Source of the DNA: an uncultured Planctomycetota bacterium
GTDB taxonomy: Bacteria; Planctomycetota; Phycisphaerae; Tepidisphaerales; Tepidisphaeraceae
Assembly: GCA_963841915.1 (NCBI GenBank)
Contig: CAWJEN010000005.1
Span: 1,024,001-1,088,000, forward strand
DNA: 64,000 nt
Direction: 5' to 3'
Positions 19,350 to 22,780 of this stretch are shown piece by piece. The position numbers and the translations under genes are program-made. Within the stretch, counting starts at the first letter, position 1, and the number at the start of each line of letters is the position of its first letter. A model generated the notes under the pieces. It saw only the letters and a list, made by a program, of their open reading frames with translations, did not search any database and was not told the origin of the DNA.

Positions 19350-20300
19350 ATGAAACGCCCCGTCAAGATCGGCCTCGGCATCGTCGCGGCTGTCGTCGTC
19401 CTGCTGTTCGTTGCCGTCTTCGTCGTCCTGTCGCGGATCGACGGCATCGTGGAGCAAACCGTCGAGTCGCAAGGCACGTCGCAGCTCAATCTGCAGACGC
19501 TGCTGAGCGATGCCGACGTGTCGCTGTTCGGCGGCAGCGTCGCGCTCAACGGTTTGACCATCGCCAACCCGGAGGGTTACTCGGCAGAGCACCTCTTCGA
19601 GATGGGCCAGGTTCGCGTGGGCGTCGGCCTGACCGGGCTGACCGGCGACCCGCTGCGGATCGGCGAAATCGACATCAATTCGCCGGCGCTGACGATCGAA
19701 CGCGGCAGTGTCGGCGGCATGGCGGAGCAGCTACGGCTCAACCTGCAGGAGCTCATGGAACGGCTGGCCACTGATCCTGACGCAGAGACGACGATGCTGC
19801 TCATCGACCGCCTGACGGTGACGAACGCCCGCGTCGCCATTCGGCCGAACATCGAGGGGCTCGACGAGGAGTACGCCCTGACGTTGCCGGACATCACGCT
19901 GCGGGAGATCGGCACGGCTGAAGGTGCGCAAAATGGTGCTGAGATTGGTCGTGTCGTTGCCGACGTGGCGATGGCGCTGGCCAAGAAGGCGGCCGAGAGC
20001 GAGGACTTGCCACCGGAGGTGCGGGCAGTGCTGTCGGGCGACTTGTCGGCTATCTTGAGCAAGTACGGCGACGAGCTGTCGAACAAGGTGCGGGAAGAAC
20101 TTAACGATCAGCTCGACGGCTTGGGTGACAAGGTCGGCGGCGAAGCGGGCAAGGCGATCGACGACGTGCTCCAAGGTGCCGCCGGTGACGGGGCGAACGT
20201 GCGGGACAAGGCCGAAGACGCCGCCCGCGACGGCATCAAGAAGGGCATCGGTGGCCTGTTCGGCGGCGATAAAAAAGAGAACGACAAGAAGGACCAATAG
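19350..20300 (+). CDS. AsmA-like/DUF748 membrane-anchored protein
   Basis: Single N-terminal TM, then VSLFGG...LNGLTIANPEGYS, beta-rich domain and helical tail. Confidence 0.7.
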   Translation: MKRPVKIGLGIVAAVVVLLFVAVFVVLSRIDGIVEQTVESQGTSQLNLQTLLSDADVSLFGGSVALNGLTIANPEGYSAEHLFEMGQVRVGVGLTGLTGDPLRIGEIDINSPALTIERGSVGGMAEQLRLNLQELMERLATDPDAETTMLLIDRLTVTNARVAIRPNIEGLDEEYALTLPDITLREIGTAEGAQNGAEIGRVVADVAMALAKKAAESEDLPPEVRAVLSGDLSAILSKYGDELSNKVREELNDQLDGLGDKVGGEAGKAIDDVLQGAAGDGANVRDKAEDAARDGIKKGIGGLFGGDKKENDKKDQ

Positions 20301-20348
20301 CGAGCAGACGCGGGTGCTCGACTTCCACCTGCTGCTGCTGGTGGCAAG

Positions 20349-20384
20349 ACAAGCACCTCAGACCCGAGGGTCTGAGGTGCTTGT
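20349..20384 (+). terminator. Strong hairpin terminator, possibly bidirectional
   Basis: 16-bp perfect stem ACAAGCACCTCAGACC/GGTCTGAGGTGCTTGT followed by a T-rich tract. Confidence 0.8.
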
Positions 20385-20391
20385 TTGGTTC

Positions 20392-21460
20392 AAAAACCGC
20401 CCGGCATCCGTGCCAGATCCGCCGCCTGCTCGTGCCGGCGGGATCGACGGCATCCTTGGCGTCGGCGGTTGAGTTGTTCCGGCACACCTGAAGGCGGCGT
20501 GCCGGGAAAATCCGCCGGCCCGGGATCAGCGGGCGAGCGGAGGAAGTCGCGACCGGCAAAGCAACGTGGCGATCAGGCCGATGTTGCGGGCCGGCGGGTG
20601 CACCGGTGACGCCGCTGCGAGCTGACGCGGGAATCGTCTGCTCGCCCGTGCGTTCTACCCGGCGGCCGATGCGGTCGCGGGCCGCGCGGCTGGCGGGCAC
20701 GTCTGCGGGTGCCTGCCGTCGCGCGGTAAGGGGTGGCAAGACATCAAATCGGCAAGAGCAGCTCCGCTGCTGTTGTCAATTCGATGTCCTGCCCGGCATT
20801 CGCCGGGGGCGGCCGCTGCACAATCCCTGTGGGTCGGACGGCCTCGCGTGTCGCGGGCGACGTCCCCTCGGAATTGATTGACGCCACCGGCAACTGCCGC
20901 GTCTTTGTCTCTGCCCGACTCGCCCTCCGTGGAGGAGTCGCCGCTGGCTCCAAACCCGCTTCGCCCGTCGCAGATGCCCTGTGCCGGGGCGGCTGCGACG
21001 ATCGATGGGCCCGCAATCGACGGCTGGAACAAGTCCCGGCACGGCGAATTGCGGCGGCGTCTTCCCGTCCGTGGGAAGAGGCCGATAGAGCCTGAGGTGG
21101 CCAACATCCGTGTCGGCCCGGCTCGTTCAAAGACGCATGGGTGTGTCTGGTGTGACTCCTGGCCGGAGATCAGTGGGTGACGGCTGCGGCCACGGTGGCA
21201 CAGCTGCGTCGTGTTCCTTGCCCCCATCGCCTTGGCTGCGGAGGTGCCTGCCGGTGAAGGCAGTGGCACATCCTCGCGTCATGATCAAGCCCTTGGGCTG
21301 ACCGATGACGGGCGCTCGCGGCGGGGGCTGGCGGTGACACCAGCCTTGGTGTCGTTGCCGTTGTCTGGTTGTCGGGAAGACGGGCCATCCGTGCCGCGTC
21401 CTTAGTCTCTCCCGGTGCGGCAGTGCCGCTTCTCTCCGTGGGGCGATCCGTGCCCGTTCT
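20392..21460 (-). ncRNA. Putative structured GGA-rich RNA (CsrB/RsmZ-like) in the mraZ 3' region
   Basis: No credible ORF; about 11 ANGGA motifs on the minus strand (7 are CACGGA), many in hairpin loops; ends in a closing stem plus U5. Confidence 0.55.
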
Positions 21461-21463
21461 GTC

Positions 21464-21985
21464 TCAAACTGCCTTCGCGGCGGCGGCCTTGTAGCGGTCT
21501 GCCAGCTGCGGGCGTTGCTTGTTCTTCAGGTCGAGGTAAGCTCGCCATTCGGCCCGGGGCCAAAGCTGCAAGTGGTTCTGGACACCGACCAGAACAACGT
21601 CGCGGCCGAGCCGCTCGCGGTCGACACTCGACTCGGACAAGACGACCCGGCCCGCCTTGTCCGGCGTGAGGCGAAGCGCCTGGCCGAAGAGGACGAGCAT
21701 GTAGTCGAGCTGGTCGGGATCGGGCACCGGGTCGGTCGTGCTGGGTGCGACGTTGCGGCGGTAGTAGTGTTCCGGATACAGCCACAGTTGATCGTTAGGC
21801 CCCGTGATGAGAATGAAGCTCGAACCATCCCGTGTCTCGTCGAGCGCCTTTCGGACGTCGGCAGGAATGAGGAGGCGGCCTTTTTCATCAATGGTGAGAT
21901 CGTGGTTGCCGATAAAGAACGGGCCGGGTGCCGGCTGTTCCAAAGCGGGTGGTTGTTCGGTCGGGCTCGTCGCTGACGTGGTCAC
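21464..21985 (-). CDS. mraZ: Division/cell wall cluster transcriptional repressor MraZ
   Basis: Two AbrB-like repeats: IDEKGRLLIPA..R and DKAGRVVL...VLVGV.NHLQLW...W. Confidence 0.92.
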   Translation of the reverse strand: MTTSATSPTEQPPALEQPAPGPFFIGNHDLTIDEKGRLLIPADVRKALDETRDGSSFILITGPNDQLWLYPEHYYRRNVAPSTTDPVPDPDQLDYMLVLFGQALRLTPDKAGRVVLSESSVDRERLGRDVVLVGVQNHLQLWPRAEWRAYLDLKNKQRPQLADRYKAAAAKAV

Positions 21986-22063
21986 CTCGAGCTGGTCATC
22001 CCCGCGCTGCGTGGAAAGCCGCCGATGCGGCTTCGAGATCCACTGGCTGGGCTGACGTGGGAG

Positions 22064-22092
22064 AGCTTACCACTCTGCCCCACTGATGCCAA
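22064..22092 (-). promoter_or_regulatory. mraZ promoter with MraZ boxes
   Basis: Minus strand TTGGCA-17 nt-TAAGCT with an extended TG; GTGG-N6-GTGG (22083-22070) lies in the spacer. Confidence 0.75.
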
Positions 22093-22287
22093 GGTCGGCT
22101 CTTTTTTCGTGACGTGTGGCTGCAACGTGCCGCAAACTTAGTAAGATCGCCCGCCCGCCCGTCATCCTAATCGCCTAACGAATAACGGTTTGCGAACTTA
22201 TCTACGACCCATCAAGAATGAATGCGGGGAGCCGTCGCTTTTCGCGGGGCCTGCCATTCCTTCTAACGAGGGATGACCAACGACCTG

Positions 22288-22780
22288 CTAGAGCAGCGTC
22301 GAACCCATCCGGTGGGGCGTCGGCCCACACGCCTCCAGCCGCCGTGGTGTGGTTCTGTCGGCACGAAACGACATGCGTGTCAGCAAAGACCAGTCGGCGT
22401 CAGAACACGAAGTGGGTCGCCATCCCACCGGCAGCCAACGCAAGAACAAGCAGCGACAGGCGACGAAGCGGGCGATGAAGCCGCACCACAAGCGGAGACA
22501 AAGCGTTCACCAGCAACGTGGTCATGAGGACCGGAATCGACGGGACAACGGGCCGAGCCAGCGACAGCGCCTCTGCTGTCAACAGGCAGCACACCAATAC
22601 GAACAGCACGGCCGCTGATCGCGGGGTGCTTGCCGCCTGTGTCGCAAGCAGCAGCACACTCACGACAAGCGTTGCCGAGACGGCCCCACCTGCGTCCTCA
22701 GGCCACGCGGCCACGCACAGCAATGCTGCCAGGCCCAGGCCCGCCAACAGCGCGAGCGCGGTTCGCTCACCGCTTGAAGA
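22288..22780 (-). CDS. Hypothetical multi-TM membrane protein, probably frameshifted; boundaries uncertain
   Basis: Several hydrophobic segments in the 22400-22801 frame; possible continuation in another frame to 22288. Confidence 0.35.

Follow-up and report, generated by a model that had tools for sequence, protein, structure and literature searches.

A GGA-rich candidate CsrA-binding RNA 3' of mraZ in a planctomycete of the Phycisphaerae

RNAs that act as decoys for the translational regulator CsrA are documented in the Gammaproteobacteria, and systems of the FliW type are described as lacking them (PMC7652899, PMC4894983). CsrB/CsrC and RsmX/Y/Z are independently transcribed, are controlled by BarA-UvrY or GacS-GacA, and are short RNAs with densely packed sites (PMC7652899). 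RsmW of Pseudomonas aeruginosa is an RsmA-binding RNA with seven GGA motifs that derives from a 3' untranslated region (3' UTR); it appears to be processed from the upstream gene's 3' UTR, binds RsmA in vitro and is not activated by GacA (PMC4950607). In Campylobacter jejuni the leader of flaA titrates CsrA alongside FliW (PMC4894983), and in the Planctomycetota CsrA is common (PMC13443453). Here we analyze a stretch of 1,069 nucleotides (nt), positions 20392-21460 on the minus strand, that lies 3' of the gene mraZ in a window of 64,000 nt (C5:1024001-1088000) from the genome of an uncultured planctomycete of the Tepidisphaeraceae (GCA_963841915.1; 3.63 Mb, 64% G+C, 6 contigs). An earlier note, made from the letters of the window alone, had proposed this stretch as a candidate CsrA sponge resembling CsrB and RsmZ.

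Our results favor the core of that proposal, and none of the refuting conditions named in the note that lend themselves to computation was borne out. The gene-free kilobase 3' of mraZ most likely makes a folded RNA displaying many CsrA-type sites, and we assign a probability of roughly 0.55 to the reading that this RNA, made as the 3' UTR of mraZ and possibly processed, would bind and titrate CsrA. The analysis shows the enrichment of the motif, its exposure in predicted loops, the lack of coding signal, the conservation among relatives, the agreement with sites in the csrA and flagellin leaders and the association with csrA; transcription, CsrA binding, titration and any link to the autoregulation of MraZ are inferred. 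The presence of csrA, the motif density, the conservation and the sites in leaders speak for a sponge, whereas the likeness to CsrB, RsmY and RsmZ does not extend to Rfam homology: permissive scans, run at E up to 10 on positions 19800-22400 of the window and at E up to 0.1 on five relatives' loci, returned neither a Csr/Rsm match nor anything else of relevance. Because there was no Rfam match, we do not file the RNA in the CsrB, CsrC, RsmX, RsmY, RsmZ or RsmW families. A hit to RF02634 at 20291-20400 was rejected: its 24.8 bits fall below the gathering score of 100, and what it overlaps is the terminator hairpin. Full-text searches on CsrA and on mraZ, some of them aimed at Planctomycetes and Phycisphaerae and none covering subscription journals, found no published description of an mraZ-linked RNA with CsrA-type sites.

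Motifs, predicted fold and the CsrA of the host

The earlier note saw no credible open reading frame (ORF) after mraZ, and three kinds of evidence agree with it. In 150-nt windows starting from 21500 down to 20360, the G+C difference between codon phases is at most 0.2 in the region, against 0.4-0.5 in most 150-nt windows of the flanking genes. None of six ORFs inside the region has a Pfam match, and the longest internal ORF (204 amino acids, aa) has a relative in none of 25 related genomes, including four of the same genus. A protein-coding or pseudogene reading was rejected on the absence of codon periodicity, of a Pfam match and of a conserved ORF, and the conserved protein that the earlier note had left for checking is not encoded here.

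The minus strand of the stretch carries 11 ANGGA motifs, ten of which read CANGGA and seven CACGGA, and the plus strand carries none; every motif lies at the exact plus-strand start that had been listed by hand. Expectations were taken from dinucleotide shuffles of the region (n=5000; n=2000 for the empty plus strand). The mean for ANGGA was 3.96, and 11 or more were reached in 6 of 5000 shuffles. For CANGGA the mean was 1.82 and for CACGGA 0.78, in keeping with the earlier estimate of fewer than one, and no shuffle in 5000 had at least ten of the former or at least seven of the latter. The lack of ANGGA on the plus strand is only mildly unusual, being matched by 171 of 2000 shuffles. Across the genome, the mean count of CACGGA on one strand of a 1069-nt window is 0.19 (145,146 windows, both strands). 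Of 2,112 non-periodic region-strands, the region comes second when they are ordered by CANGGA, and again when they are ordered by CACGGA. By shuffles, genome windows and rank alike, the motif density is thus far above background. The first rank belongs to a simple tandem repeat, (GGCACGGA)x13 at C6:380156-380290, which is also the only site in the genome that exceeds the region in CACGGA; considered as a second sponge, it was rejected as a plain 8-nt tandem repeat. A decoy of ribosome-binding sites was likewise rejected, since the bases 3' of GGA are mostly U or C (GGAUG, GGAC) and do not form GGAGG.

Three repeat loci deserve mention in their own right. The perfect 8-nt repeat at C6:380156-380290 is on the plus strand, passes into degenerate GGTGCGGA units, and lies upstream of, and divergent from, a gene that appears ParA-like by eye. 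A three-unit copy of GGCACGGA is found near C6:1648010-1648040 (minus strand). At C6:998760-998810 (plus strand) about three copies of an 18-nt unit (ACGGA CGCGCAAGCTCGC) make up a small CACGGA cluster within an apparent IS3-type transposase region.

The minus strand of 20340-21470 was folded, and both the minimum-energy structure and the unpaired probabilities were used. In the minimum-energy fold, hairpin loops hold six of the seven CACGGA, and the remaining one lies in an open linker (Table 1). A naive count of GGA in any hairpin of 4 base pairs (bp) proved non-discriminating, and we relied on unpaired probabilities instead: their mean is 0.60 for GGA within ANGGA, compared with 0.18 for other GGA and 0.18 for G in general. 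Four of the five hairpins written out in the earlier note are reproduced, whereas CAC-AGGGAT-TGTG is not, since the fold places its GGA in a different pairing (unpaired probability 0.00). When 20393-20478 is folded by itself, it adopts a four-way junction with a U tract behind it (-37.6 kcal/mol), and the U5 tract at 20392-20396 is the likely 3' end of the predicted RNA.

The genome does encode CsrA. As the earlier note had stated, csrA is not in the window; it lies at C5:766261-766416, about 258 kb from the region (PF02599, 88.8 bits; 87.2 bits on the ORF). The gene order at C5:764761-767916 (minus strand) is flgL - fliW - csrA - flagellin, and the locus is of the FliW-partnered flagellar type. 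The flagellin leader reads CACGGA-n7-CACGGAAGGA-n10-ATG, and the csrA leader has GCACGGA, 14 nt, CACGGAAGG, 10 nt and ATG. Both look like the classic CsrA operator with two sites, the second of which overlies the ribosome-binding site, and the ACGGA pair in the csrA leader suggests autoregulation. Since the leader hexamer CACGGA is the very hexamer enriched 3' of mraZ, the link between the mraZ-linked RNA and CsrA becomes firmer. At the csrA of relatives (30 loci), most ribosome-binding sites read AAGGAG, and 16 loci have a second ANGGA at most 80 nt upstream of the start, mostly between short inverted repeats by eye. A second, weak CsrA-like match in this genome (C5:213172-213342, plus strand; 29.3 bits, just above the Pfam cut-off) sits in an open frame of 161 aa.

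Conservation in relatives and the terminal junction

MraZ was found in 40 of 41 related genomes, with 47-60% identity within the 'genus', and csrA in 40 of the 41 relatives of this first set; where the coordinates of the two genes were compared, csrA did not lie beside mraZ. BLASTN of the region against 40 relatives returned only two short, chance-level matches, and none in the four same-genus genomes. In the post-mraZ stretch of 37 relatives' loci, delimited by our own GC-phase rule for non-coding sequence, ANGGA numbers 320 sense versus 67 antisense, and the probability of GGA being unpaired is 0.46 in sense ANGGA versus 0.11 in other GG triplets and 0.17 in antisense ANGGA. The pooled counts include two loci of a single genome (L026 and L051 of G006), both outside our alignments A1-A3 and neither the sole basis of any claim, and the pooled statistics overstate significance because kin are not independent. 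An unbiased 6-mer ranking over 28 loci, with the locus of this genome excluded, placed at the top the strand-biased CACGGA (46:6, sense to antisense), CAAGGA (32:3), AGGATG (30:3), AAGGAT (30:3), CATGGA (22:0) and ACGGAT (36:7). Together these spell CANGGAUG, the loop consensus of the CsrA/RsmE type, and not the GGAGG of a ribosome-binding site. The phrase 'CANGGANG hexaloops' is quoted in PMC4894983.

The enrichment is also bounded. From the mraZ stop to the end of the terminal domain described below, ANGGA amounts to 14.2 sense versus 2.0 antisense per kb in 22 relatives, and it drops to 3.7 versus 2.4 per kb in the 250 nt past the domain. At the window locus, 11 sense and no antisense ANGGA precede the end of the U tract, and the next 250 nt hold no sense ANGGA. 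The control values are 4.4 sense versus 1.3 antisense per kb in the mraZ coding sequence and 2.4 versus 2.8 per kb in the 200 nt upstream of mraZ. The GGA hairpins after mraZ, whose conservation the earlier note had wished to see examined, are conserved in relatives.

These observations leave little room for a non-functional origin of the pattern, be it as a decayed remnant of the dcw cluster, as chance composition, or as a DNA repeat related to the GGCACGGA microsatellites. The loss of rsmH from this locus, the occurrence of GGCACGGA tandem repeats at two other sites of the genome and the failure of the region to align even within the genus would all suit such an origin. Nevertheless, the strand-specific feature is displayed in loops, has definite bounds and persists across 37 loci; the shuffles exclude an effect of composition; the copies are dispersed, each in a hairpin of its own, and not in tandem; and no protein remnant was found by Pfam or in the 25 related genomes. 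We regard this origin as very improbable.

Some loci carry a second module 14-150 nt past the mraZ stop, a hairpin with the loop CC-AGGGAAGGAU-GG and two overlapping GGA sites. By eye it is present in 13 of 23 printed loci (L013-L015, L018, L020, L022-L025, L027, L031, L035 and L069), with two shorter or extended variants; the window is without that form.

Pairwise BLASTN brings out a block of some 80 nt that many loci of the window's family share, with 85-91% identity in the best pairs and 79-91% over the 40 listed. This terminal domain folds as a four-way junction without linkers, made up of a 9-bp closing stem (P2), a hairpin with the loop ACGGAU (P3), a plain hairpin (P4) and a hairpin with the loop A(N)GGAUG (P5). 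When 14 sequences are aligned with MAFFT, pairing holds in 90.9% of cells and both sides have changed in 8 of the 22 pairs, which none of 500 shuffles reached, and slid controls of that alignment gave 37-60% pairing; in a model-fitted alignment of 20 sequences, both sides change in 15 of 22 pairs. RNAalifold proposes a partly different P3 in which the GGA is paired, and P3 may therefore alternate between two forms. Our model R1 recovers the domain in five loci of the family outside its training (48-56 bits) and scores 29.5, 24.8 and 18.5 bits at the same-genus loci L010, L012 and L011; over models R1 and R2 together, L010, L011 and L012 reach 29.5, 31.1 and 24.8 bits. Of 151 genomes sampled across the class, 15 have a match to the domain: 14 belong to the window's family (f1, 20 genomes sampled) and one to f14 (four sampled), and the remaining sampled families have none. 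It is nearly always single-copy and, where checked, lies 3' of mraZ on the same strand. By eye, a U run follows the closing stem in four loci (L022, L035, L016 and L070), and weaker U-rich tails are seen in others.

For the window itself, model R1 run against this genome with E up to 1 gave no match. The best weak model match in the window falls exactly at the 3'-terminal junction, with the same layout as the relatives' domain, and the hairpin at 21060-21079 is the best local match to P3 (6.7 bits). Judged from these model comparisons, homology between the window's junction and the relatives' domain is plausible.

Loci further out in the tree serve as controls. In a sister family (f3; e.g. G026, G055 and G063), MraZ is present in 20 of 21 genomes and csrA in 1 of 21. 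The spacer between mraZ and rsmH in this family measures 350-480 nt; over 8,391 nt of it, ANGGA occurs 33 times in sense (3.9 per kb) and 14 times in antisense (1.7 per kb). Taken together with csrA in 40 of 41 relatives, the GGA-poor spacer of this csrA-poor family indicates that the enrichment goes with csrA. In 29 phylum-level loci from outside the class, mraZ is mostly followed directly by coding periodicity, and the first 600 nt past mraZ hold 0-9 sense ANGGA with little strand bias. Two side observations belong here: the sole f3 genome with CsrA (PF02599) has 7% contamination, and locus L068 shows coding-like periodicity.

The same data speak to a conserved structured RNA whose GGA loops would serve some other partner, such as an RNA-binding protein or loop-loop contacts, with no relation to CsrA. 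The covariation of the junction domain as an independent structure, and the lack of any matching Rfam family, would fit such an RNA. Against it count the agreement of the loops both with the CANGGAUG pattern and with the hairpins in the leaders of csrA and flagellin in the same genomes, and the lack of enrichment where csrA is mostly missing; we consider another partner distinctly unlikely.

Locus organization and a possible role in cis

Table 1. Features of the mraZ locus, in window positions; folds and unpaired probabilities are predictions
Feature	Position	Strand	Remarks
mraZ	21464..21985	-	173 aa, called with a GTG start; two MraZ repeats (Pfam PF02381, 78 bits); codon periodicity
Non-coding GGA-rich RNA region, presumed mraZ 3' UTR or RNA processed from it	20392..21463	-	11 ANGGA, 10 CANGGA, 7 CACGGA
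Hairpin GGGC-ACGGAUC-GCCC	21441..21455	-	loop in minimum-energy fold; GGA unpaired 0.62-0.66
ACGGA (CACGGA) in open linker, outside hairpin loops	21435..21439	-	unpaired 0.46-0.65
Hairpin GGACGCGGC-ACGGAUG-GCCCGUCU; AAGGA at 21399 in its stem	21378..21401	-	GGA unpaired 0.96-1.00
AAGGA (CAAGGA), partly open	21215..21219	-	unpaired G 0.34, G 0.72, A 0.95
Hairpin GGCCGACA-CGGA-UGUUGGCC	21099..21118	-	GGA unpaired 1.00
Hairpin UCUUCCC-ACGGAC-GGGAAGA	21060..21079	-	GGA unpaired 1.00
Hairpin CGACUCCUCC-ACGGA-GGGCGAGUCG	20916..20940	-	GGA unpaired 0.79-0.92
CACAGGGAUUGUG: motif present, loop presentation of the earlier note not predicted	20819..20831	-	GGA unpaired 0.00-0.01
3'-terminal four-way junction: closing stem, CAAGGAU-loop hairpin (20446-20463), plain hairpin, CUGGC-ACGGAU-GCCGG (20401-20416)	20397..20468	-	
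U5 tract after junction	20392..20396	-	terminator-like site 20417-20400 then CGGUUUUUGA
Large perfect hairpin between convergent units	20351..20382	.	U-rich tail on plus strand
Convergent DUF748/AsmA-like gene	19350..20300	+	Pfam PF05359, 59.2 bits; codon periodicity; sets the unit's lower limit

A search of the genome found mraZ in single copy, with both repeats matched. The first GGA hairpin starts 9 nt past its stop codon, and there is therefore no space for a terminator plus a promoter between the gene and the RNA. No sigma-70-like promoter was found in 20200-22300, although such scans are weakly informative in Planctomycetota. A likeness of UGGCACGG to the -24 box of a sigma-54 promoter, judged by eye only, was rejected: the two GGCACGGAUGCC hairpins are without a properly spaced TTGC -12 element. 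With its U-rich tail on the plus strand, the large hairpin at 20351-20382 probably serves as the terminator of the DUF748 gene.

At most loci of the window's family, the gene that comes after mraZ is rsmH, on the same strand; it starts 500-830 nt past the mraZ stop, after a spacer of lower G+C, and in 8 of 11 relatives no ANGGA occurs in the 90 nt before its start. The orientation of the following gene was read from ORFs and the RsmH motif, GC phase having been ambiguous. From this layout we derive the ancestral order mraZ - GGA RNA - junction/terminator - spacer - rsmH. A convergent gene, not rsmH, follows in this genome and at the same-genus loci L010 and L013, and rsmH, the usual neighbor of mraZ, is found here at C6:1063873-1064748. 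The 'orphan mraZ' of the earlier note is thus accurate insofar as rsmH is absent from the locus, but it reflects a local rearrangement, the RNA lying between mraZ and rsmH in most relatives. The leader of the relocated rsmH (C6:1064750-1064980, minus strand; about 200 nt, non-periodic) has four ANGGA, as ATGGA, ATGGA and ACGGACGGA, which may be a CsrA site or chance.

This gene order raises the question of a role in cis. The stretch could be a CsrA-responsive element of the dcw transcript that governs the stability of the mraZ messenger RNA (mRNA), or termination versus read-through, at the junction hairpin, into rsmH and the division genes, with titration as a side effect. Such a role would fit a same-strand rsmH as the next gene in most loci of the family and the U runs and weaker U-rich tails seen by eye after the terminal domain, and CsrA-dependent control of termination is known in Escherichia coli. 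However, the sites persist without a co-directional downstream gene here and in L010 and L013, and their retention after the loss of rsmH argues against a purely cis role on that gene. The region just before rsmH is without ANGGA in most relatives examined, its spacer is lower in G+C, like a separate promoter region, and the 5' side of mraZ is unenriched (2.4 versus 2.8 per kb). On balance, we find a role confined to cis rather unlikely.

Proposed role and comparison with known systems

The reading that we prefer, a titrating RNA made as the mraZ 3' UTR, should be taken with some caution, since several of our results count against it. The site density of 10 per kb is far below that of CsrB or RsmZ, so that the titration capacity per nucleotide would be modest. 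In the predicted fold, 3 or 4 of the 11 ANGGA are paired, and the junction fold of 20393-20478 is only at z -1.6 relative to shuffles. The window's own copy of the terminal domain is not significant (6.6 bits; 10.5 bits, E 0.19). Sense ANGGA exceeds antisense about 2- to 3-fold even in the control transcribed regions, and the contrast with f3 comes from a single clade and counts as one evolutionary event. The position of the RNA inside the dcw operon in most relatives allows for a role in cis. Finally, the organism already has FliW, and the literature reports an anti-correlation between FliW and Csr small RNAs (PMC4894983).

If the titration reading is correct, transcription from the mraZ promoter would run on through the region and yield a long, structured 3' UTR, which may afterwards be cleaved off, and the RNA would end at the four-way-junction hairpin cluster and the U tract. 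Some 8 to 11 A(N)GGA sites, mostly in C-ACGGAU-G hairpin loops, would be the recognition element of this bacterium's CsrA, and CsrA dimers would bind these loops. By keeping CsrA off its mRNA targets, which may include flagellin, csrA itself and others, the RNA would lower free CsrA. It would act in parallel with the protein antagonist FliW, and free CsrA would be tied to the activity of the mraZ/dcw promoter. A broader claim, that the Phycisphaerae have an old, class-wide RNA antagonist of CsrA at the 3' end of the mraZ transcript alongside FliW, is tentative, and we give it somewhat less than an even chance.

The mraZ-linked multi-GGA RNA is a concrete candidate that can be tested cheaply, with one RNA, one protein and defined loops. 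It could explain CsrA control in a phylum that bears FliW and is not proteobacterial, and it suggests that the dcw/MraZ promoter is, unexpectedly, connected with CsrA. If the class-wide claim is true, the RNA would count as the first decoy of the Csr type outside the Proteobacteria, would run against the reported anti-correlation of FliW with small RNAs, and would couple a cell-division promoter to flagellar and global translational control.

Among RNAs linked to the same genes, the mraW RNA motif (RF01746) of the Actinomycetales is likewise structured and sits beside rsmH/mraW, where the dcw cluster begins. The RNA described here resembles it in being a structured RNA at that same place, and differs from it in phylum, size and loop motif, with no Rfam match. 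The leader systems of flaA and hag (C. jejuni, Bacillus subtilis) share with this genome the fliW-csrA-flagellin arrangement and a flagellin leader with two GGA sites, one of them over the ribosome-binding site. In those systems the target mRNA is itself the titrator and has two sites, whereas the candidate here would be a separate non-coding RNA with about 11 sites and a link to a cell-division gene.

With CsrB/CsrC of the Enterobacteria and RsmX/Y/Z of Pseudomonas, the mraZ RNA has in common an array of hairpins with A(N)GGA loops, a terminator end, a genome with csrA and a proposed sequestration of CsrA dimers. Unlike them it has few sites for its length (10 per kb, with a GGA density about one fifth of that of CsrB), is probably co-transcribed with mraZ, coexists with FliW and, in relatives, ends in a covarying four-way junction.

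Closest in gene context is RsmW. The mraZ RNA differs from it in length: it would measure about 1.07 kb in this genome and some 350-1240 nt in relatives, whereas RsmW is reported as bands of 120 and 400 nt in a gammaproteobacterium (PMC4950607). It also differs in lying behind mraZ in a member of the Planctomycetota, in having no sequence or model similarity to RsmW, and in that its binding of CsrA is predicted from sequence. Like RsmW, it is a multi-GGA RNA directly behind a small gene, with no terminator between the two.

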